Below, piece by piece: positions 157 through 39,265 of a stretch of DNA of 64,000 nt. Both the position numbers and the translations under genes were made by a program. Numbering within the stretch: the stretch's first letter is position 1; each line of letters opens with the position of its first letter. Source of the DNA: Escherichia phage vB_EcoM_ESCO10. The stretch is taken from the sequence record OM386655.1. One strand, given 5' to 3'. The notes beneath the pieces are model-generated. The model saw only the letters and a list, made by a program, of their open reading frames with translations, had not been told where the DNA came from and did not search any database.

Positions 157-2115
157 ATGGCTACTCCTACGAATTACCAATTAACAAGAACCGTTAACGC
201 TATCCCAAAAGTATTTGTGGGAGCTACGTTTGAAGAAATTAAAAAGAACATCATTGACTGGCTTTCTAGCCAGGAAGAATTTAAGGATTATGATTTCGTT
301 GGTTCTCGAATGAATATTCTTATCGATATGCTTGCTTATAATACGTTGTATATGCAGCAGTTTGCTAACACAGCTTTATACGAATCTTTTATAGGAACGG
401 CAAACCTTCGTTCTTCGGTTGTCCAGGCTGCACAAGATAACGGATATCTCCCTAGTTCTAAATCAGCGGCAAAAACTACGGTAATGCTTACTTGTACCCA
501 GGCCCTTAATGAAAAGAATATCCGTATCCCTAGAGGTACTAAATTCCTGGCTTATGCCCGTGATACATCAGCGGACCCGTATTCTTTTGTGACCACTGAT
601 AACGTTATTGCCGTACGCGATGTTAATAACCAATATTGGCCTATTGTTTCTTTGGCCCAGGGACGTATTATTCGTACTGAACTTAAATATGACCCTAAAA
701 CTCCTATTCTTATTCGTGACCCGGATATTGATAGACAAGAAGTTAAACTTTATGTTGATGGGGCCGAATGGATTAACTGGACTAATAAATCAATGGTCCA
801 TGCAGGCAGTACTTCAACAATTTATTATATGCGTGAAACCGTAGATGGTAATACAGAATTCTTCTTTGGTGAAGGTGAAGCCGAGAAATCCGTTGCCGGT
901 GGAGTATTAGAAGCTAATTATATCGGTGGTCTGAAACCTGTTAAAGATTCTACTATTGTTATCGAATATCTTCGTACAGACGGTGAAGTTGCTAACGGTG
1001 CAGTGGATTTCAGTTATGCAGACTCATTGGCTTATATAACCGTAGAAAAAATTACAGAAAACTATAATGACGACCCGGATTATGTGGGTGCTGACGGTGG
1101 CGGCGACCCTGAAGATATTGAACGCATTCGAGAGCTGGCTGTAGTTAAGCGTGAAGCCCAGATGCGTGCTGTTACAGGAACCGACTATGATACATTCGTG
1201 TCTGAACGTTTTGGTTCTATTGTACAGGCAGTACAAACCTTTACAGACTCAAATAAACCAGGTTATGCTTTTGTTACCATTAAACCTAAATCAGGGCTGT
1301 ATTTGACCGCTGTTCAACGTGAAGATATCCAAGATTATCTAAAAGAATTTAACTTAGCACCTATTACCCCTTCTGTTATTTCTCCCGACTATTTGTTCTT
1401 AAAGCATAAAATTAAAGTTTCTTATGCTCTGAATAAATTACAGGAATCTGAACAGTGGTTATCGGCTCAAATTCTTTCTCAGATAGATCGTTATTATATT
1501 AACGAAGTAGAAATTTTTAACCACGGTTTCGCTAAGTCTAAAATGTTGACTTATATTGATAATGCAGACCACAGTATTTTAGGTTCTTCGGCTACAGTAA
1601 CAATGGTTCGTGAGGTATTGAACTTTTTCAAAACTCCTGAGTCAGGTATTAAATACTATAATCAATACACTAACCGTTCTGTGGTTTCTAGTGAATTTGA
1701 GTTTGTCCCTACTAACGTTTCTGAAGACCTCCCATCATATAATGTCAGAATTGCTGCTACAGATAAAGATGAGCGTGGTGATGGTAAAATAATTATTGGT
1801 CCTTTCCGTCCAGGAGATGTGATTGAAAACCAATATATTAAACCTTATACAGGAAATGACTTTGATAAAATGCCGGCTCCTGCGGACCAATCTGTTTATT
1901 ACGTTATAGGTGAAATCGATTATTATTCGGATTTCATTTTCTGGGACATTGCGGCTATCGGTTTAACGTCTGATCGTTTTGAAGTTCAATCTATAGAACT
2001 TTATGCAGGACCTGACCAAGATAACATCTTTACAAAAGACGGTTCGTTAATTGTATTTGAAGATGACCTCCGCCCTCAATACACGACCATTGAATTAGAA
2101 CCTATTACAATATAA
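157..2115 (+). CDS. 6: baseplate wedge subunit gp6
   Basis: 652 aa; N-terminus MATPTNYQLTRT...FVGSRMNILIDMLAYNTLYMQQF closely matches T4 gp6 as recalled; synteny 5.4-6-7. Confidence 0.95.
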   Translation: MATPTNYQLTRTVNAIPKVFVGATFEEIKKNIIDWLSSQEEFKDYDFVGSRMNILIDMLAYNTLYMQQFANTALYESFIGTANLRSSVVQAAQDNGYLPSSKSAAKTTVMLTCTQALNEKNIRIPRGTKFLAYARDTSADPYSFVTTDNVIAVRDVNNQYWPIVSLAQGRIIRTELKYDPKTPILIRDPDIDRQEVKLYVDGAEWINWTNKSMVHAGSTSTIYYMRETVDGNTEFFFGEGEAEKSVAGGVLEANYIGGLKPVKDSTIVIEYLRTDGEVANGAVDFSYADSLAYITVEKITENYNDDPDYVGADGGGDPEDIERIRELAVVKREAQMRAVTGTDYDTFVSERFGSIVQAVQTFTDSNKPGYAFVTIKPKSGLYLTAVQREDIQDYLKEFNLAPITPSVISPDYLFLKHKIKVSYALNKLQESEQWLSAQILSQIDRYYINEVEIFNHGFAKSKMLTYIDNADHSILGSSATVTMVREVLNFFKTPESGIKYYNQYTNRSVVSSEFEFVPTNVSEDLPSYNVRIAATDKDERGDGKIIIGPFRPGDVIENQYIKPYTGNDFDKMPAPADQSVYYVIGEIDYYSDFIFWDIAAIGLTSDRFEVQSIELYAGPDQDNIFTKDGSLIVFEDDLRPQYTTIELEPITI

Positions 2116-2143
2116 GCCTCTTAGGAGGCTTTGAGGAGATTTA

Positions 2144-5100
2144 ATGTCTGTACAAGCGCCTTCCGTTACTAGTTTGAGAATCGATAAACTCTCGGCTAAC
2201 CATGTAAGTATTCTTTGGGATGACGTAGGCGCCAATTTCTATTATTTCGTAGAACTGGCCCAAACCAAGGATGCGGGTGAATCTATACCCGATGATAAGT
2301 TATTTTGGAGAAATTTAGGTTATACCCCGAACAACAATTGGTTCGAAGAAAGATTTATTTCTCCTAATTCGTTTTATAAAATGCGTGTCGCTGTAGCAGC
2401 TCAAGGATTTGAACAATCTGACTGGGTTTATACAGAAGAATTCGAGACATTTTCTACCAACGCATATACCTTCGAGCATATGCGAGAATTCACTTTATCT
2501 AATAAATTCATTGAAGAAAAATTTACCAAAAATAACCAGAGTTACGTGGATTTTAATAGTGACGCCATTATGGCTTCTATGATGGCCGAAGATTTTACTT
2601 GGACTCCGGCATATTCGCACCTTTCTTCAATTTCTAATTATGTATTAAAGGCCGACCGCTTCCATGAGATTCAAGGAAGTATCCAAGCTGTTTGTAAAGA
2701 CCCTAATCGTTCCATTTTAATGGAGCTTGGTGGAGTACTTTATCTTTTAGAAAGATTTCAGAACACTGCTAAGGTATCTAATGACAAAGCTCAAAACTGG
2801 CACTATATTCGCCTGTTTAACGACCGAGTTGGTAATCCGGTTTCACGTACGGCCCATTACCAAACAGACACCACAACTTATGTTTTAGGTTATGATCGTA
2901 TATTTTACGGACGTAAATCGAGCGATATCAGATGGTCTGCTGATGATGTACGTTTTAGCTCGCAAGATGTGACTTTTGCTAAAATTGGTAGTGATATTGA
3001 CCTTGATTTTGAAATTGAAATTTTTGGTTCTTATGCTCGTTTACCGTTAGCTATTTCTACTATAGCAGAGGCAATATGTGCTTCGGATGATTTTATTTAC
3101 GTAGCTGCTAGAGACAGAGTTTATAAAGCAAAAACCACTGATGCCCCTATTGACACCGATCCAGGTTCACCTACTTACGGTGAAAAAATATTTGAAAGTG
3201 GATATTCTTCTATAACAGGTAATCCTAAAGCGGTTTGTTATAAACTGGATTCTATTCAGGGAAATACCTTTGCCTTAATTACAGGCGAAGTTAAAGAAGA
3301 AAGAATGGACCCTACTAAAGAAGAAAACGTGGTTGATTCTGAATCTAAAGGTGTTTATTGGCTTGATGTCGAAACCGATACATGGACCCGAGTATTTGGT
3401 AATACTGAAGAAGAGAGACGCCGTATTGAGCATGGTTATACCAGCATGTCTACAGATGGTGAAGAAATATTCTTTAGTTCTAGCAACTTCAAATATGAGG
3501 TAGAAGTTGACAATGAATTGCCTTTAGAATACCCTATCGTGGCTTCTGCAGTAAAATACGTTAAGGATGAGCAGTGGATTCACGATAAACACTATCTTAT
3601 GATGAGCTTTAGGGCTAACAGTAAATCAGATTTTAAAGAATTCAAACCTGGTAGAATGGCTTATTATGCTGAACCGTTCTTTAGTTGGTCTAGACGTGAT
3701 GGGACCCGCTCTTGGATTACCACAAGTAATCATGTAATGGTGGTTTATAATGATGCTTTATATCAGAAAATTATTGATTTAAACAGTGGTTCTTCTCCTG
3801 AACGTATTATCCGTGAAATTTGGAATAAAGGCTTTTGTACTGTAACATGCCCTAACATCGAATTCAATGGGTTTAAAAAATATTCTTCAGGTATCATGAT
3901 TCATAAATCATCAGGTGAATTGGTAGGATATTTTGAGTTCGATTATCGAGTTCGAGACGAGGTTAGAATAATTTGGAAGCCTAAAGAAATAATGTTTACG
4001 GCTGAGCTCCAAAACCAAGAGCATGAGATTCCATGGACTCCTAAAGAAGAAACCGGTGAACAGGACCCTGATTTGCGTCCTTTATTGGTTAAAATGGTTC
4101 CTGATAGTTATTTGCTTCAAGATTCTAACTTTGAAAAATTCTGCGAATATTATCTTCAATTTATTAGTGATGGCTCCGGCACCCATTATAATAATCTATT
4201 AAATCTTATTCGCAACCAATATCCTAGAGAAGAAGATGCATGGGAATACTTATGGTCCGAAATCTATAAACGTAATATCTATTTGTCTAAAGAAAAGCGT
4301 GATGAAGTAGTTCGTTTCTTCCAGGCTCGACAATCTGATTTCTGGTCTACAAAAGGTACCGAAGCTTCTTATAAGTTCTTGTTTAAATTGCTTTATAACG
4401 AAGATGTTGAAATTGATATCGAGTCTAAAAACTCTATTGAATACGATATCATCGTAGAATCTGATAATATCAGTGAAGATATAGTCGGCCAAACAATTTA
4501 TACTCCTACAGGAAGAAGTAATGTTACTTATATAGAACGAAATTATAAAGATGGTAAATTGCAATGGCGTTTAACCATTCATAATCTTTTAGGTCGTTTT
4601 ATAGTGGGTCAAGAGATTAAATCTGAACGCACATCATTTAAAGGTATGATAGTGCAGGGTGTACGCGGTAAAGAATTGTTAAGTAACAATATCGATTATA
4701 TTAACCGCAACCGTTCTTATTATGTTATGACTATTAAATCAAACCTCCCAACTTCTCGCTATCGTAATGACGTGTTGAGATTTGTCCATCCGGTAGGATT
4801 TGGTTTTATAGGGATTACATTGCTTTCTATGTTTGTTAATGTCGGTTTGACATTAAAGCACACGGAAACCATTATTAATATACTTAAGAACTATAAGTGG
4901 GACTCGGGACTTCCGTCAGAATGGTATGATAGAGTTGCTGTAATCGGATTTGATGGTAATATAGAACGAGACCCTAGAACAGGGCTCCCGGTTTATAATG
5001 TCGGTCCGAAAGCAGGTGAACCATTCCCTATTCCGGCAGATTATGATACAGAAAATGATTTCTCTGTATTCCAAGGCCAATTACCTCATGAACGTATTAA

Positions 5101-14324: not shown

Positions 14325-14969
14325 ATGAACTATAATAAGATTTACAAATCTTTAATAAATAAGGGCCTCGAAAGAGGTCTAAATAAAAAGAAGGTAGGGT
14401 TTTATACAGAGAAGCATCATATTGTCCCTAAATCCATGGGTGGTAGTGAAGACAAATCTAATTTTGTTCTTTTAACCGCTAGAGAACATTTTGTAGCTCA
14501 TCAATTATTGTATAAAATACACAAAAACCGTTCTATGGCCCATGCTATGATTAATATGTGTGCTGATAGCACAGGTAATAGGGTTAATTCTAAGTTATTA
14601 GATTGGCACCGTAAAGCTAAGGCTAAGGCCCAAAGTGAGATGGTTTCAGGTGAAAACCATCCTATGTATAACAAGAAACATAAAAAAGAAACATTAGAAA
14701 AAATGAGATTGGCCAAATTAGGCGTCCCATGGACTGAAGAAGTTAAGGAATCTAGAAGAGAAGAATTACTTAAAACCTCTGAACACGCTAGGACTTTCAT
14801 CGACTATAAATCTGGCGGAGAAAATCCAGCCGCAAAGAAAATATGTATAGAAGGTATAGTATTTGATTATATGGAAGAAGCGGTTCCTTGGTGTAATATA
14901 ACAAGAAGAACTCTTTTAAATAGAATCAAATCTTCAGACCCTAAATGGAGGGATTGGAATTATGTCTAA
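14325..14969 (+). CDS. free-standing HNH homing endonuclease (HNH + NUMOD-like motifs)
   Basis: 214 aa; [31 protein letters not shown] is an HNH motif; [11 protein letters not shown] and ENPAAKK motifs; wedged between genes 13 and 14 with 8-nt overlap of gene 14. Confidence 0.8.
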
Positions 14970-34872: not shown

Positions 34873-35556
34873 TTAGTTTAAACGAATAAAAGATGAGTTA
34901 CGTGTTTCACGAATAAGAATGGAACCGTCACGATTGATATAGTAAATCAAACTAAACAATGTTTGGTGTGCGCTTGCATGAGCAAAAGAAGTGGGGCGTT
35001 CTTTCCAGTCCGGGGTCTCTTTAATCCACTGGTAAATCCACCAAGGGAGGGTACAATACCCAGGAGCTTTGCCCAGCATAAGCAGATTAGGACTAAAATT
35101 TTCAGGTAATTTAAATTTAGGTTTTTCAGATTCAACAATCTTAGATACGGCTTCTTCGAACTTCTCTTCAACAAAAGGAGTTTCAACAACAGCTATTTCA
35201 ACTGTTCCTGGGGTATCTTTTATTTCAATAACTTCAACAGGTTCGGCAGGAGCCGTCGGAGCGTCAAACAATAATTTAGCTTCAATTTTAGATTCTTCAA
35301 CATTTGCCAGGTGAGCATTAGTGCCCTGAAGCTCATCGTCGGCATCGATTAAATCAGTAATAGATAAACCTTCAGTTTCAGGTATAGGTTCATCTGCTAT
35401 AGCCTTAAGGGCTTCAGCGATGTCTATTACCAAGTTGTCAAAACTTTTAGTTTTCTTAAGTTTTAAACCGAACTGTTCGCCGTATTCGATTAACTTAGCT
35501 TTAGCTTCTTTTTTATCTTCGAGTGAACGAAGCTCTTCAATATATTGAGTATCCAT
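34873..35556 (-). CDS. inh: probable inhibitor of prohead protease
   Basis: 227 aa; position between hoc and uvsW and size match T4 Inh; identity by synteny only. Confidence 0.6.
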   Translation of the reverse strand: MDTQYIEELRSLEDKKEAKAKLIEYGEQFGLKLKKTKSFDNLVIDIAEALKAIADEPIPETEGLSITDLIDADDELQGTNAHLANVEESKIEAKLLFDAPTAPAEPVEVIEIKDTPGTVEIAVVETPFVEEKFEEAVSKIVESEKPKFKLPENFSPNLLMLGKAPGYCTLPWWIYQWIKETPDWKERPTSFAHASAHQTLFSLIYYINRDGSILIRETRNSSFIRLN

Positions 35557-35612
35557 AATTAGTCTCTTGTTGGTGTATAAATATAACTATATTTATTACT
35601 GGGATTATTCCA

Positions 35613-37109
35613 ATGAAGATTAATGTACATTTTGAAGATTTTAGTCATGTCCGAATTGAGTGTGACGATTCCACTTTCTTCGAACTCAGAGACTATTTTA
35701 GTTTTGAAGCCGATGGCTATAAGTTTAACCCAAAGTATCGTTATGGCCAATGGGATGGGAGAATTCGTCTTCTAGACTATAATCGTAAACTCCCTTATGG
35801 TCTGGTTTCACAGATGAGAAAATTCGCAGACCAATTCGAATACCAACTGTGGATTGACCCCCGTATCACCGAAACTGAAGAAATTTCTGAAACCGAATTA
35901 AAAGAATGGATTGCTTCTAAAGAAATCTATTCAGGTAATACTAAGATTGAGCCTCATTGGTATCAAGCTGATGCCGTATTCAATGGTCTTAAACATCGTA
36001 GACGCATTCTTAATTTACCTACATCCGCAGGTAAATCATTAATCCAGGCACTCCTGGCGCGTTATTACGTAGAACATTATGAAGGTAAAATTCTTATCCT
36101 TGTTCCTACTACTGCTCTCGTCGACCAGATGATTAATGACTTCGCTGATTATCGTTTATTCGGTAAACAACATATGCTTGGTATTCGAGCTGGTACCAAA
36201 CGTGATTCAGACGCAATGATTTATGTTTCAACTTATCAAACGGCTGTTAAACAACCTAAAGAATGGTTTGCTCAGTTTGGTATGTTTATGAACGACGAAT
36301 GTCACTTGGCTACAGGTAAGAGTATTTCTACTATTATTGAAGGTCTTACTAATTGCATGTTTAAATTTGGTTTGTCTGGTTCTTTAAAAGACGGTAAAGC
36401 TAACCTGATGCAATACATGGGTTTGTTTGGTGATATTTTTAAACCTGTTTCCACCTCCCAATTAATGGAAGAAGGACAGGTCACCGATTTAAAAATAAAC
36501 AGTATTTTCCTTAGATATCCAGACGAATTCACTGTTAAGATGAAAGGTAAAGATTACCAATCAGAAATTAAAGTCATTACTAAGGCTACTCGTCGTAATA
36601 AATGGGTTGCTAATTTAGCTGTTAAGCTCGCTAAGAAAGAAGAGAACGTATTCTTGATGTTTAAAAACATCGAGCACGGTAAAACTCTTTTTGAAATGGT
36701 TAAAGAGCAACATAAAGAAGTTTATTACGTATCAGGCGAAGTTAATACAGAAACTCGTAATGCTCTTAAGTTAATGGCGGAAAACGGTAAGGGTATTATT
36801 GTTGTGGCAAGTTACGGTGTATTTTCTACAGGTATTTCTGTTAAGAATCTCCATCACGTAATATTTGCCCATCCTGTAAAATCTAAAATTATTGTACTGC
36901 AAACCATCGGTCGTGTACTTCGTAAACATGACAGTAAACAAGTCGCGCAAGTTTTTGATATCATCGACGACATGGGCGTGAAACCTAAATCCAAAGATTC
37001 TAAAAAGAAATACGTTCACCTAAATTATGCATTAAAACATGGATTGGATCGTATTCAACGATATGCAGACGAGAAATTTAATTATGTCATGAAAGAGGTC
37101 CAAATTTGA
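35613..37109 (+). CDS. uvsW: UvsW RNA-DNA/DNA-DNA helicase
   Basis: 498 aa; motifs NLPTSAGKSLI (Walker A), DECH, VLQTIGRVLR; strong match to T4 UvsW. Confidence 0.95.
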   Translation: MKINVHFEDFSHVRIECDDSTFFELRDYFSFEADGYKFNPKYRYGQWDGRIRLLDYNRKLPYGLVSQMRKFADQFEYQLWIDPRITETEEISETELKEWIASKEIYSGNTKIEPHWYQADAVFNGLKHRRRILNLPTSAGKSLIQALLARYYVEHYEGKILILVPTTALVDQMINDFADYRLFGKQHMLGIRAGTKRDSDAMIYVSTYQTAVKQPKEWFAQFGMFMNDECHLATGKSISTIIEGLTNCMFKFGLSGSLKDGKANLMQYMGLFGDIFKPVSTSQLMEEGQVTDLKINSIFLRYPDEFTVKMKGKDYQSEIKVITKATRRNKWVANLAVKLAKKEENVFLMFKNIEHGKTLFEMVKEQHKEVYYVSGEVNTETRNALKLMAENGKGIIVVASYGVFSTGISVKNLHHVIFAHPVKSKIIVLQTIGRVLRKHDSKQVAQVFDIIDDMGVKPKSKDSKKKYVHLNYALKHGLDRIQRYADEKFNYVMKEVQI

Positions 37110-37801
37110 ATTATCAAAAAATTTATGACAATTTAATTAGAAGCCGAAAGGCTTCTAAACCTGAGGGTTATACAGAATCTCATCATATTATCCCGTCATG
37201 TATTGGCGGGCCTGATACTCAGGAAAATAGAGTACGCCTTACCCCAGAAGAACATTTTATAGCTCATAAATTACTAGCTAAAATTTATCCAAATAACTAC
37301 GGACTCATAAAAGCTGTTATTTCTATGGGTATGAGTTCCAGGACTCATAAAAGACAATTTAGTAAATCATACGGCTGGGAACGTAGACAATTGGCAATTC
37401 TTCAGACTGGCGAAGGAAATCCATTTTACGGTAAGCACCACACTGAAGCTCATAAAGAATACATGAGCAATTTATTTAAAGGTAGACCTATTTTATGGGG
37501 CGATAAAATATCCGCAACTAAAAAAGCGAATCCTTATAAATACACACAAGAACAATGTCAAGCTATATCTGAAAGAAATTCTGGGGTCGGCAACGGCATG
37601 TATGGTAAAAATCATACACCAGAAGCTTCTAAGAAAATTTCAGATAAAGCTAAAGAAAGATATAAAGACCCATCTAAAAACCCGGCAGCTAAAAAGGTTA
37701 CTATACATGGTGTTGAATATGGCTCGATGAAACAAGCTTCCGAAGCCACGGGTCTTTCTCGTCACAAAATCAGAAATTTAATGAAACAGGTGGATTTATG
37801 A
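37106..37801 (+). CDS. free-standing HNH homing endonuclease (paralog of 14325..14969)
   Basis: 231 aa; begins at TTG 37106 (AGAGG SD 7 nt upstream) overlapping uvsW stop; ESHHIIPSCIGGPDTQENRVRLTPEEHFIAH HNH motif; GEGNPFYGKHH and KNPAAKK shared with first copy. Confidence 0.78.
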   Translation: MNYQKIYDNLIRSRKASKPEGYTESHHIIPSCIGGPDTQENRVRLTPEEHFIAHKLLAKIYPNNYGLIKAVISMGMSSRTHKRQFSKSYGWERRQLAILQTGEGNPFYGKHHTEAHKEYMSNLFKGRPILWGDKISATKKANPYKYTQEQCQAISERNSGVGNGMYGKNHTPEASKKISDKAKERYKDPSKNPAAKKVTIHGVEYGSMKQASEATGLSRHKIRNLMKQVDL

Positions 37802-38025
37802 AGTCCTTTAAAGAAGTTATCTATGAAGCCTCTATCGAGAGCTTCATGTCTAAAATTAGTTCTTGCCAAACCATGGACGGTTTGGAGGAATTGGAGAAGT
37901 ATTACAAAACCCGAAGTAAAGAAGCCGAACTTCGTGATTCGGATGATATCAGTGTCCGTGATGCCCTAGCAGGTAAACGATCTGAATTAGAATCTATGGA
38001 TGATGACGAAGAAGAAGAGTTCTAA
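37798..38025 (+). CDS. uvsW.1: UvsW.1 small acidic protein
   Basis: 75 aa ending DDDEEEEF; AGGTGG SD; ATGA overlap with upstream endonuclease gene; position as in T4. Confidence 0.75.
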   Translation: MKSFKEVIYEASIESFMSKISSCQTMDGLEELEKYYKTRSKEAELRDSDDISVRDALAGKRSELESMDDDEEEEF

Positions 38026-38035
38026 AACAAAAAAA

Positions 38036-38057
38036 GGCCCAACCTTTCGGAAGGGCC
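38036..38057. terminator. bidirectional hairpin (GGCCC...GGGCC with inner CCTT-TCGG-AAGG)
   Basis: Seen between convergent uvsW.1 (+) and a small minus-strand ORF. Confidence 0.5.
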
Positions 38058-38088
38058 AATAACCATAAAAATGGCTATACACACTAGA

Positions 38089-38256
38089 CTAAAGCAATAA
38101 TTGTGTTTCGTTCAGCTGTTCTTCAGTGTTTTCCGTAACAGGCAGGCTTTGAACGTAATTATAACATGGACCCGGATGAACCGGACCTTTTTCTGTTTCA
38201 ACAACCAATGCAGCATCGATTGGAGTTTTACAGACAACGCAAATCTTATCTGACAT
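38089..38256 (-). CDS. small Cys-containing ORF (55 aa), uvsY.-2-like position
   Basis: Hand-translated: MSDKICVVCKTPIDAALVVETEKGPVHPGPCYNYVQSLPVTENTEEQLNETQLLL; below ORF-track cutoff. Confidence 0.3.
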   Translation of the reverse strand: MSDKICVVCKTPIDAALVVETEKGPVHPGPCYNYVQSLPVTENTEEQLNETQLLL

Positions 38257-38382
38257 GATTGTCTCCTTAGTTTATCTTACATATCTATTTATTACTTGCT
38301 AAAGCAGCGTTAATGAATTCTTGAATAAGCTTCATTTTATCAGCATCTACTTTAATAGGTTTGGTATTTTTAGTACGTCTCA

Positions 38383-38817
38383 TTATTTACCTGCCTCAAA
38401 CTGCCTCATCTCGTGCATTGTCTTAAGGTTAAAACCCCTGGCCTTAATAGCATCCAATGCCGAACTACAAAAGTCTTGTAATAAGGCCCAATACTGGATT
38501 GAAGTATCGATTTTAATTACGCTTGAATCTGCAGCCATTACGGTCTTTAATTCCGACCTCTCGTACTGGTCCATACAAACCTCATCACCAGGCTCTCCAC
38601 GTCCCGTGTAGAAATCTAATCTCTTCTTAAGAGAGGTCTTTTTCTGGATTTCTAATCGCATTATCTCTTTCTTACAATTCGTATATAGTCTTAGCCATTT
38701 GCTGTGCAGCAAAACGTTGTTCTGTACTTCATACTGTAAACGAGTCCCATCAATCTTTAAATCTTCATCTAATGCATCTTGGAACGATTCTAATTTATAT
38801 TCAATCTCTTTACTCAT
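38383..38817 (-). CDS. uvsY: recombination mediator UvsY
   Basis: ORF track extends to 38883; ATG 38817 gives 144 aa with LQYEVQNNVLLHSKWL...DTSIQYWALLQDFCSSALDAIKARGF...EMRQFEAGK aligning with T4 UvsY. Confidence 0.9.
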   Translation of the reverse strand: MSKEIEYKLESFQDALDEDLKIDGTRLQYEVQNNVLLHSKWLRLYTNCKKEIMRLEIQKKTSLKKRLDFYTGRGEPGDEVCMDQYERSELKTVMAADSSVIKIDTSIQYWALLQDFCSSALDAIKARGFNLKTMHEMRQFEAGK

Positions 38818-38875
38818 GGCATGTTTCCTGTTGAATGACCGTAGGACCATTATACACCATTTGTTTGTACAGCAA

Positions 38876-39265
38876 TTAACCACTCTGTGAGAGCTGGATT
38901 CTAATTTGCTCTAATGTGTCCGGGTCGTCAACAATACTAAACTGGACTGTTACTATAATAGAGTTGTCATCATAAACAGGGGTTACACCTACAGCAAGAG
39001 CAGAAATTCTAGGTTCGAAGTTCCGCACAGCGGAAACTATATTACGCTTAATGGTATCTGTTATTAACGGGGTGATATTCTCAAACAACTGATTGCTAAT
39101 ATCACATCCAAATTCAGGCATAAAAGGGCGAGAACCTTTACGGGTAGTAATAATGCCTAACAAACTATTTTTTACTGCACGGGACCCTGTAGCTTTAGCG
39201 ACGTCTCTATTCCAAGACGTCCTCATTTCAGGGTCCAAATCTGAATACATTTTATTGATATTCAT
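38876..39265 (-). CDS. 25: baseplate wedge subunit gp25
   Basis: 129 aa; NINKMYSDLDPEM...LLGIITTRKGSRPFMPEFGCD matches T4 gp25. Confidence 0.93.
   Translation of the reverse strand: MNINKMYSDLDPEMRTSWNRDVAKATGSRAVKNSLLGIITTRKGSRPFMPEFGCDISNQLFENITPLITDTIKRNIVSAVRNFEPRISALAVGVTPVYDDNSIIVTVQFSIVDDPDTLEQIRIQLSQSG

Follow-up and report, generated by a model that had tools for sequence, protein, structure and literature searches.

A MobE-like HNH homing endonuclease gene at the uvsW/uvsW.1 junction of Escherichia phage vB_EcoM_ESCO10

In Escherichia phage vB_EcoM_ESCO10 an open reading frame lies between the gene for the helicase UvsW and the small gene uvsW.1, overlapping the stop codon of the first and the start codon of the second. 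The locus raises the questions of what this reading frame encodes, where its translation begins, how it came to occupy the junction and what it does to its neighbors. A sequence-only reading had proposed that it is an HNH endonuclease initiated at TTG that splits uvsW from uvsW.1 and that, as a paralogue of an insert between genes 13 and 14, it had spread recently within the genome. The analysis covered the window, that is, the whole stretch of 64,000 nucleotides from sequence record OM386655.1, together with related phage genomes. The features discussed are collected in Table 1.

Table 1. Positions of the features in the window
Feature	Position	Strand	Description or basis
Paralogue in the 13/14 interval, a Mob-type HNH endonuclease gene	14325..14969	+	214 aa, ATG start
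5' hairpin of the 13/14 paralogue	14363-14380		
T4-type late promoter consensus TATAAATA 5' of uvsW	35576..35583	+	exact match
uvsW helicase gene	35613..37109	+	498 aa; Pfam UvsW_N 1.4e-43, ResIII, DEAD, Helicase_C
3' part of uvsW accompanying the endonuclease gene; foreign sequence in a VR5-like backbone	36931..37105	+	identity shift vs VR5/PSD2002
Repeat copy 1, ATGAAAGAGGTCCAAATTTGA	37089..37109	+	uvsW tail MKEVQI*, SD AAGAGG, TTGA start/stop overlap
Mob-type HNH homing endonuclease gene, free-standing	37106..37801	+	231 aa, TTG start
RNA hairpin UUAGAAGCC-GAAA-GGCUUCUAA, endonuclease codons 11-18	37137..37158	+	fold, conservation, covariation
HNH (His-Me finger) catalytic core, residues 22-55, YTESHHIIPSCIGGPDTQENRVRLTPEEHFIAHK	37169..37270	+	conservation, model
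Two NUMOD3 repeats, DNA-binding linker, ~residues 100-125 and 145-179	37403..37642	+	Pfam NUMOD3
TATAAATA motif within the endonuclease gene, candidate late promoter for uvsW.1	37535..37542	+	exact match
C-terminal beta-hairpin and helix-turn-helix, predicted I-TevI-like DNA-binding domain, residues 188-229	37667..37792	+	
Repeat copy 2, ATGAAACAGGTGGATTTATGA	37781..37801	+	endonuclease end MKQVDL*; SD and ATGA overlap for uvsW.1
uvsW.1	37798..38025	+	75 aa; Pfam UvsW-1 3.8e-24
GC-rich hairpin, converging uvsW.1/uvsY.-2	38036..38057	.	read from sequence; place of a conserved bidirectional terminator

The reading frame, its product and its start codon

The reading frame between uvsW and uvsW.1 proved to be a real HNH-type homing endonuclease gene. 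It starts and stops independently in the interval between two complete genes, outside any intron or host protein, and a search of positions 35000-39000 against Rfam at E<=1 matched neither a group I intron nor any other family. At the 5' end, the TTG at 37106-37108 shares bases with the uvsW stop codon TGA at 37107-37109 (ATTTGA, 37104-37109; CAAATTTGA). At the 3' end, the proposed ATGA overlap was confirmed (TTATGA, 37796-37801), the endonuclease stop codon overlapping the uvsW.1 ATG at 37798. The gene inh (34873-35556) is located immediately 5' of uvsW. A conserved bidirectional terminator has been reported 3' of uvsW.1 (PMC1524935), and the GC-rich hairpin found in its place was not called by a simple terminator scan.

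The protein matched the PHROG 655 profile over residues 1-201 (E 1.1e-53) and had 861 homologues at E<=1e-5. The HNH motif pattern HH-x13-N-x8-H-x3-H was present, and E24, H27, P30, C32, G35, N41, L45, H50 and H54 were invariant in 61 homologues, with H26 nearly so. The Pfam HNH match was sub-threshold (E 0.21), and the core aligned to the HNH motifs of McrA (E 0.06) and IscB. The AlphaFold model (pLDDT 89 overall) placed strands at residues 24-27 and 42-45 and a helix at residues 47-60, with pLDDT >94 for residues 24-60. NUMOD3 was matched in two stretches (45.4 bits against a cutoff of 20.4, E 7.8e-12), TIGR01453 matched residues 108-227 and the modelled C-terminal helix-turn-helix matched the DNA-binding domain of I-TevI. 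The dN/dS values of 0.05-0.10, relative to UP19, PSD2002 and SP18, are those of purifying selection. By these features of its sequence and model, the ORF is an intact free-standing HNH homing endonuclease gene of the T4 Mob (MobE-like) group.

The claim that the endonuclease had split uvsW from uvsW.1 failed, as the two are separate ORFs in all endonuclease-free genomes. An ancestral UvsW-UvsW.1 fusion was considered and rejected; all 66 word-index matches were 74-80 aa long, and when 1.84 billion representatives were searched exhaustively with a profile, no UvsW.1 homologue was found C-terminal in a helicase. The UvsW.1 homologues that the profile search did find were small stand-alone proteins or the N-terminal domain of proteins of 260-301 aa.

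The TTG at 37106 is the first possible start of the ORF, with an in-frame stop 9 codons 5' of it and a Shine-Dalgarno sequence, AAGAGG (37093-37098), 7 nt before it. The next in-frame start is codon 74, past the HNH motif, so that no alternative start retains the motif. The position of the start is kept in all ten endonucleases found at the uvsW/uvsW.1 junction, each of which begins in an NTGA overlap (TTG in six, GTG in two and ATG in two), and every homologue, whether or not its gene begins with ATG, conserves residues 2-11 (NYQKIYDNLI) directly after the NTG. The assignment of TTG at 37106 as the start, with its overlap of the uvsW stop, is well supported by this comparison. It is very improbable that the TTG is not the start and that translation instead begins internally or shifts frame at the overlap to give a UvsW fusion protein. 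Some annotators do avoid TTG, and the SP18 RefSeq record begins at an internal ATG 32 codons downstream, but the conserved N-terminal residues, the Shine-Dalgarno sequence and the location of codon 74 all argue against an internal start in the window. As for frameshifting, CAAATTTGA, read in the uvsW frame, is not a canonical X_XXY_YYZ slippery site.

Junction occupancy, the 13/14 paralogue and the mosaic flank

The junction was occupied in UP19, PSD2002, SP18, T6, PM2, Roth77, Rgz1 and NM4.3 and empty in VR5, JS98, FB, dhaeg, MX01 and T4. In the empty sites uvsW is joined to uvsW.1 by an ATGA overlap. Eight of the 628 phage records that matched the flanks carried the endonuclease gene at the nucleotide level. 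A presence/absence polymorphism of the kind that marks a homing gene was therefore found at one precise site among closely related genomes. The junction genes annotated 'homing endonuclease' in T6, PST ('mobD'), SP18, PSD2002, UP19 and PM2 are orthologues, and the amino acid identity to same-site endonucleases, those of Klebsiella, Proteus and Morganella phages included, ranged from 57 to 98%. The start/stop overlap and the position of the 5' hairpin in T6, PST, SP18, PSD2002, UP19 and PM2 are as in the window. The nearest same-site genes, those of PSD2002 and UP19 (96-97% nt), have flanks unlike those of the window, whereas the T6-type genes resemble the window gene at the nucleotide level over the first 404 nt only and end in TAA followed by an intergenic hairpin, with no uvsW.1 overlap. 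In the literature search, no publication dealt with an endonuclease at this junction or characterized the same-site orthologues. The comparisons indicate that this is an endonuclease lineage with one fixed site, uvsW|uvsW.1, in T4-like phages of several genera.

The gene between genes 13 and 14 was the sole other copy of the family detected in the window at the sensitivity of the tblastn search. The two proteins were 32% identical over 239 columns (tblastn E 8e-26, BLASTP E 2e-29), and the alignment ran from residue 1 to the C-terminus, taking in MNYxKIY, the HHIxP...GG...N...EHFxAH core, GExxPxY.K.H and NPAAKK. Because the alignment is end to end and motifs are shared outside the HNH core, the resemblance greatly exceeds chance and extends beyond the HNH region, and the proposed paralogy held. 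The further proposal, that one gene arose recently by copying of the other to a new locus, did not survive and is scarcely credible. Both genes belong to the same family, align over their whole length and bear a 5' hairpin, yet they are only 32% identical and each is far more similar to same-site genes of other phages. For the 13/14 gene there is a single close relative, at the same site in phage FB (98.6%), and all others fall below 40%. Its identity to the MobE-site and PM2 endonucleases is 36-39%, so that it is about as close to these as to its genome-mate. The two genes also segregate independently. FB has the 13/14 gene and an empty uvsW site. Conversely, PSD2002 and UP19 carry the uvsW-site gene without the 13/14 gene, since no second record matched the latter at >80% protein identity and the DNA of the 13/14 region was covered by FB only.

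The sequence flanking the uvsW-site gene is mosaic. Over the final 177 nt of uvsW, the window was 75% identical to VR5 and 90% to PSD2002, whereas in the 300 nt before this patch it was 98% identical to VR5 and 89% to PSD2002. From 37798 onwards the window was 100% identical to VR5, and uvsW.1 was 100% identical at both the DNA and protein levels. A foreign patch, ~36931-37801, consisting of the endonuclease gene and about 175 bp of upstream uvsW, is thus set in a VR5-like backbone. The uvsW genes of T4 and T6 were likewise 100% identical and then fell to 76-82% in the last 200 nt. Co-conversion of flanking markers, which is expected of a homing gene, is seen in both cases, and the mosaic pattern indicates that the endonuclease gene was acquired by gene conversion from another phage.

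Since T4 versus T6 shows the same asymmetry as the window, the target is probably in the 3' end of uvsW. Judging from the two co-conversion-like patterns, the putative target site in endonuclease-free alleles most likely lies in the tract 36931-37105, though it may instead be among the first few bases of uvsW.1. During mixed infection the endonuclease would nick or cut the allele that lacks the gene, probably in the last ~200 bp of uvsW, and the putative nick or double-strand break would be expected upstream of the ATGAAACAGG junction. Recombinational repair would then copy the endonuclease gene and the adjacent uvsW 3' segment into the recipient, and the patch in the window would be the footprint of such a conversion. 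The uvsW tails of endonuclease-carrying alleles were 66-90% identical across genera, and this dissimilarity indicates that there is no single conserved 'immunity' sequence. A single origin of these tails across genera was rejected, as they were 66-73% identical to one another, no better than to gene-free alleles.

Expression, the 5' hairpin and the duplicated uvsW tail

No promoter signal was found immediately 5' of the endonuclease gene. The TATAAATA motif is located at -36/-37 from the uvsW start in VR5, JS98, FB, UP19, PSD2002, SP18, Bp7, Rgz1 and NM4.3, and its copy at 35576 is the presumed source of a transcript that also carries the endonuclease gene. The motif at 37535 was kept solely in a close clade comprising the window, UP19, PSD2002 and SP18. 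Expression of the endonuclease would probably be late and low, riding on the uvsW late transcript. The suggestion that the TTG start damps expression is plausible by analogy, as it fits the published picture of T4 mobE (PMC2988022, PMC2790892). A weak start codon is not universal at the junction, given that four lineages use ATG or GTG. In the predicted fold of the window, GGUCCAA (37098-37104) pairs with UUGGAUC (37044-37050), which would sequester the ribosome-binding site; no such pairing was predicted for the remaining alleles with the endonuclease that were examined, among them PSD2002.

The hairpin at 37137-37158 begins 31 nt 3' of the start and, with a dG of -13.4 kcal/mol, is the most stable 30-nt window of the gene. 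None of 300 synonymously recoded sequences was as stable, covariation was found in six of the nine pairs, and an equivalent hairpin was present in all 12 Mob-type genes of T4-like phages examined (10 at the junction, the 13/14 paralogue and T4 mobE). The hairpin is not universal in the wider family, where the best hairpin fell at +15..+60 in just 13 of 63 distinct IMG/VR relatives. Its position matches that of the internal terminator hairpin of T4 mobE, a gene between nrdA and nrdB (Wilson & Edgell 2009) that has no promoter of its own and a start/stop overlap (PMC2790892, PMC2988022). The mobE hairpin, 27 nt after the AUG, acts as a weak terminator with 30-50% termination (PMC2790892, PMC2988022). 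Both hairpins are stable, with 9 bp and a 4-nt loop at ~+30, but that of the window, unlike that of mobE, has no poly(U) tract; it is followed by ACCTGAGGG and was not called by the terminator scan. Because no U-tract follows it, the hairpin may not act as a terminator.

The endonuclease gene ends in 21 nt (ATGAAACAGGTGGATTTATGA) that match, base for base, the 3' end of uvsW in VR5, whose site is empty. Besides the Dhakavirus background, a tail duplication was found in SP18 (KQVEI), T6 (KTVNL, the end of T4 UvsW) and PM2 (KEVKL). The incoming cassette would bring a replacement uvsW tail and stop codon, and uvsW.1 keeps its ribosome-binding site and ATGA overlap because the 3' 21 nt of the endonuclease gene copy the original uvsW 3' end. 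AGAAATTTAAT, which is common to the uvsW and endonuclease ends, was considered as an extension of the repeat and judged coincidental, as it lies in another frame and encodes a conserved helix, KIRNL.

The duplication bears on whether the gene still homes. It could be an inactive relic or domesticated passenger, kept since the cassette serves as the uvsW stop and provides uvsW.1 signals and perhaps a promoter; imprecise loss would then harm the neighbors. The cassette does hold the ribosome-binding site of uvsW.1 and possibly a late promoter, the motif at 37535, an analogous argument has been published for the promoter inside T4 mobE (PMC2790892), and MobE activity was not demonstrable in vitro (PMC2790892). 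This explanation is nevertheless unlikely on several grounds, 1) the low dN/dS over the whole protein and the invariant catalytic residues argue for a protein still under selection, 2) recent mobility is indicated by the gene's scattered occurrence in backbones that are nearly identical and by the abruptness of the mosaic boundaries and 3) the flanking 21-nt repeats would permit precise loss. It is thus highly probable that the gene encodes an intact MobE-like HNH homing endonuclease of a one-site lineage, homing by cleavage and co-conversion and expressed late and at a low level.

Relation to known homing endonucleases and significance

Among T4 proteins the nearest is MobE, of the same PHROG family, with ~36% identity over residues 1-198 and the same N-terminal MNYxKIY motif and HNH core. 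Like the window gene, mobE sits after a conserved gene with no promoter signal immediately upstream, its start codon overlaps the upstream stop codon, and the neighboring conserved gene is the likely target, with co-converted flanks. MobE nicks the neighboring gene of T2 (PMC2790892, PMC2988022). The two differ in their sites (nrdA|nrdB versus uvsW|uvsW.1) and presumed targets, in the start codon (AUG versus TTG) and at the 3' end, where the window gene repeats the tail of uvsW and runs into the uvsW.1 start codon, and mobE instead contains a middle promoter serving the gene after it.

I-HmuI consists of a catalytic domain, NUMOD linkers and a C-terminal helix-turn-helix. The window protein resembles I-HmuI and I-TevI in combining a nuclease with extended linker repeats and a C-terminal helix-turn-helix, and its modelled C-terminus matches the DNA-binding domain of I-TevI; unlike these enzymes it is not intron-encoded, and the catalytic domain of I-TevI is GIY-YIG rather than HNH. 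T4 SegE, a GIY-YIG endonuclease encoded between inh and uvsW, cuts uvsW (PMC2988022). It is likewise a free-standing homing endonuclease with uvsW as its landing zone, but it belongs to an unrelated catalytic family, lies at the opposite end of uvsW and is absent from the window, where inh is directly 5' of uvsW.

A more general proposal, advanced tentatively and with rather less than even confidence, is that T4-like Mob genes travel as a portable 'low-impact cassette' of three elements, with the adjacent ~200 bp of uvsW as an immunity zone. The first element may be a recoded duplicate of the final ~20 nt of the gene upstream, such that the endonuclease gene takes over the original stop/start overlap and the second copy restores the downstream translation signals. 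The second may be a deliberately weak start, combining either a strong Shine-Dalgarno sequence with TTG or GTG or no Shine-Dalgarno sequence with ATG, and the third a covarying GNRA-loop hairpin ~30 nt into the gene, with a role perhaps other than termination. The ~200 bp of uvsW beside the gene may be a fast-diverging immunity zone of mostly synonymous changes that marks the putative cleavage site.

The window gene is an ordinary selfish gene of a known type and does not change the understanding of homing. It offers a well-delimited case of a selfish endonuclease gene inserted between two overlapping, translationally coupled genes that breaks neither. The hairpin known from T4 mobE is common to all twelve Mob-type genes examined and shows compensatory changes. 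Annotators should accept the TTG start, which has been avoided in at least one RefSeq record by truncation of the gene. For an uncharacterized lineage common in T6-like and Dhakavirus phages, there is now a testable prediction, that the target would lie in the last ~200 bp of uvsW.

Structure and initiation of the uvsW-site gene

The open reading frame between uvsW and uvsW.1 (the uvsW-site gene) was present exactly as the sequence-only reading had described it. The TTG overlapped the uvsW stop codon (CAAATTTGA; TTG 37106-37108, TGA 37107-37109), and the endonuclease stop overlapped the uvsW.1 ATG (TTATGA, 37796-37801). The flanking genes were identified as uvsW (Pfam UvsW_N, 1.4e-43, plus helicase domains) and uvsW.1 (Pfam UvsW-1, 3.8e-24).

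Features of the uvsW-site gene
Feature	Coordinates	Strand	Description
Repeat copy 1	37089-37109	+	Diverged copy at window uvsW end, ATGAAAGAGGTCCAAATTTGA, MKEVQI*
Endonuclease ORF	37106-37801	+	231 aa, earliest possible start TTG
Hairpin UUAGAAGCC-GAAA-GGCUUCUAA	37137-37158	+	Gene position +32..+53, dG -13.4 kcal/mol
Second late-promoter consensus, TATAAATA	37535-37542		Internal to endonuclease gene, 266 nt from the 3' end
Repeat copy 2	37781-37801	+	Last 21 nt of endonuclease gene, ATGAAACAGGTGGATTTATGA, MKQVDL*

It had also been proposed that the endonuclease split uvsW from uvsW.1. This was ruled out, since UvsW.1 homologues stand alone (74-80 aa); an exhaustive profile search found them either as small proteins or as the N-terminal domain in proteins of 260-301 aa, but in no case as the C-terminus of a helicase. 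In the larger proteins, which appear to be PHROG 14207, the UvsW.1 domain (Pfam PF11637) occupied the N-terminal ~70 aa and no other Pfam domain was detected. The T4 RefSeq record (NC_000866, locus positions 1678-3441) still shows uvsW as one 587-aa fusion with uvsW.1, a known sequencing error (PMC1524935, PMC6486255) that has to be set aside in any search for UvsW-UvsW.1 fusions.

The protein matched PHROG 655, 'homing endonuclease' (1e-53), and contained two NUMOD3 repeats exceeding the Pfam cutoff, while the Pfam HNH (E 0.21) and I-TevI_DNA-bd (E 0.12) matches were sub-threshold. Despite the former score, the motif YTESHHIIP..GG..N..L..EH..AH was clear and could be aligned with the HNH motifs of McrA and IscB. 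E24, H27, P30, C32, G35, N41, L45, H50, and H54 were invariant in 61 homologues and H26 nearly so. In an AlphaFold model based on the alignment of these homologues (pLDDT 89), residues 24-60 formed two strands and a helix, and residues 198-229 a C-terminal beta-hairpin and helix-turn-helix. The dN/dS values of 0.05-0.10 (versus UP19, PSD2002, and SP18) indicated that the protein is under purifying selection. An Rfam search of 35000-39000 found no intron or other family, so the gene is free-standing; the nearest T4 protein was MobE (~36% identity), the free-standing HNH homing endonuclease encoded between nrdA and nrdB. The gene, which lies at a known hot spot, is predicted to specify an intact HNH homing endonuclease of the Mob type.

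The proposed TTG initiation codon was borne out. All ten endonucleases at the uvsW|uvsW.1 junction started at the identical NTGA overlap, with TTG (the window phage, UP19, PSD2002, SP18, T6, Bp7), GTG (PM2, NM4.3), or ATG (Roth77, Rgz1), and residues 2-11 were conserved among them. An in-frame stop lay 9 codons 5' of 37106 with no ATG, GTG, or TTG between, and the next in-frame start, codon 74, was beyond the HNH motif. The TTG start is thus well supported by the sequence evidence. In relatives at other sites, 58 of 63 distinct environmental sequences began with ATG, so TTG is a trait of the E. coli phage lineages at the uvsW site. The strong Shine-Dalgarno (SD) alleles (AAAGAGGT) started with TTG or GTG and the two ATG alleles had no SD, a pattern which, in a small and phylogenetically non-independent sample, suggests that initiation may be kept weak by either the start codon or the SD. 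The free-standing endonuclease genes of T4 all begin with AUG except mobA (GUG), and the AUG of mobE overlaps the stop codon of nrdA (2010 review, PMC2988022). In the SP18 RefSeq record (NC_014595), the orthologue begins at an internal ATG (locus position 2097), dropping the first 32 residues including both HNH histidines; the TTG at 2001 gives the full-length protein (2001-2696). TTG-start endonuclease genes are likely to be systematically mis-annotated in this way.

Occupancy of the junction and the gene 13/14 paralogue

The window phage is a Dhakavirus-like T4 relative. At the nucleotide level, only 8 of 628 flank-matching phage records contained the gene; the copies in PSD2002 and UP19 were 96-97% identical, and those in SP18 and its relatives ~80%. 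The junction was empty, with an ATGA overlap of uvsW and uvsW.1, in VR5, JS98, JS10, FB, dhaeg, MX01, and many others. Orthologues of 57-65% identity occupied it in many Tequatroviruses, T6 and PST among them, and also in phages of Klebsiella, Citrobacter, Proteus, and Morganella. Public annotations of the junction genes already read 'homing endonuclease'; a literature search found no paper characterising this lineage.

Bp7-type phages (Bp7, UGJNEcP3, UGJNEcP4) had a different 260-aa HNH gene at the junction (Bp7 locus positions 2007-2789), with a TTGA overlap and 5' hairpin like those in the window. Its N-terminal ~60 aa were homologous to the window protein and the remainder was unrelated. 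The downstream flank was common to Bp7 and PSD2002, and endonuclease genes therefore appear to take each other's place here. MNY...HNH relatives were also found inside uvsW, between residues ~386 and 396, on three IMG/VR contigs, dividing the helicase into two ORFs, and uvsW was interrupted in PM2 and Bp7 as well; endonuclease insertion thus seems to have a general hot spot in uvsW.

A tblastn search of the window with the uvsW-site protein found one other family copy, between genes 13 and 14 (14325-14969). The paralogy was upheld by a BLASTP alignment that spanned 239 columns, starting at residue 1 and reaching the C-terminus (32% identity, E 2e-29). The closest relative of the 13/14 gene, and the sole close one in 50,697 phage records, was at the same site in FB (98.6%); no second record exceeded 80% protein identity, and the next best matches were 36-39%. 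The gene was present in only 1 of 109 records matching its flanks, and FB alone covered the region at the DNA level. The uvsW site of FB is empty and, FB being the sole 13/14 match, PSD2002 and UP19 have the uvsW-site gene without the 13/14 gene. The 32% identity and this independent segregation contradicted the suggestion of recent intragenomic spread, and the two genes are therefore best read as old family members that were acquired separately.

MX01 had a different endonuclease at the 13/14 junction (MX01 locus positions 929-1555). Its N-terminal half was unrelated to the window HNH gene and GIY-YIG-like by eye, while its C-terminal 106 aa were 31% identical to the window 13/14 gene (E 6e-14), including the ...KPKW(K/R)(E/D)W(S/N)YV tail, where the gene 14 SD lies. 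Both genes appear to combine a common DNA-binding module with different nuclease domains.

Duplicated uvsW tail and probable homing footprint

Repeat copy 2 was identical to the 3' end of uvsW in VR5, whose empty allele encodes ...VMKQVDL* and has the ATGA overlap. In SP18, TAATTAAACAGGTGGAAAT occurred in both tail copies; the T6 endonuclease terminus, KTVNL*, was that of T4 UvsW; and in PM2, KEVKL* terminated both endonuclease and UvsW. By these comparisons the duplication rule also holds in the SP18, T6, and PM2 backgrounds. The putative uvsW.1 ribosome-binding site is within the final uvsW codons, so that an insertion between the genes must duplicate this segment; copy 1 would then serve translation of the endonuclease gene and copy 2 that of uvsW.1. 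The 13/14 gene would spare its neighbour by the same logic: its ATG lay in the context of the gene 14 start (TAATTATG), and its 3' end contained a new gene 14 SD.

The window was 100% identical to VR5 from 37798 onward, with no downstream co-conversion in this comparison. In the 300 nt before ~36931, it was 98% identical to VR5 and 89% to PSD2002, while in the last 177 nt of uvsW the values were 75% and 90%. These shifts indicate a VR5-like backbone with a foreign patch, which would consist of the endonuclease gene and ~175 bp of upstream uvsW. This upstream-only asymmetry recurred when T4, which lacks the endonuclease, was compared with T6: identity was 95-100% across the initial 1300 nt of uvsW, 82% and 79% across the final 200 nt, and 96-100% across uvsW.1 and the preceding spacer, where the known T4 record error site accounted for the sole difference within the first 300 nt. 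The UvsW protein tail was conserved, so the 3' divergence appears mainly synonymous. The right junction of the occupied genome keeps the empty-site sequence from AATGAAACAGG on; if the enzyme recognised a site lying entirely 3' of the insertion point, it would therefore cut the genome that carries it as well. Together with this junction, the two comparisons point to a probable target within the last ~200 bp of uvsW. Gene conversion is the probable route by which the gene was acquired, rather than recent copying within the genome.

A second mosaic patch lay in the 5' third of uvsW (35600-36200), where identity to each of the Dhakavirus relatives compared was only 69-87%; the sequence immediately upstream (35100-35600) was 95-100% identical to VR5. 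In T4, segE is upstream of uvsW, which SegE cuts (PMC2988022); no segE was present upstream of the window uvsW.

Expression signals

The late-promoter consensus TATAAATA was found 37 nt 5' of uvsW (-36 in most relatives), and no promoter signal immediately 5' of the endonuclease gene. The second, internal consensus was kept only in the window, UP19, PSD2002, and SP18, and would parallel the promoter inside T4 mobE that serves nrdB. A GC-rich hairpin followed uvsW.1, where a conserved bidirectional terminator has been reported (PMC1524935).

Of all 30-nt windows in the gene, the 5' hairpin was the most stable. Hairpins of 6-11 bp occurred at +29..+65 in 10 of 10 junction endonucleases, the 13/14 paralogue, and T4 mobE. 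Among 63 distinct environmental relatives, the best hairpin fell at +15..+60 in 13, so the feature is not shared by the whole of the wider family. The stem sequences varied, as did the encoded peptide segment, with indels. In 300 trials of synonymous recoding, the same peptides attained the stability of the native sequence 0-7 times. Among seven alignable hairpins, both sides changed in 6 of 9 pairs, and pairing was found in 90.7% of cells, versus 28-65% with the partner slid. The T4 mobE hairpin is a weak intrinsic terminator (30-50% termination; PMC2790892). In contrast, the window hairpin has no following U-tract, so that only by analogy would it act in the same manner.

The uvsW-tail duplication, the one-sided co-conversion tract, and the covarying hairpin of mobE type add useful anatomical detail while remaining consistent with what is established for free-standing T-even phage endonucleases.
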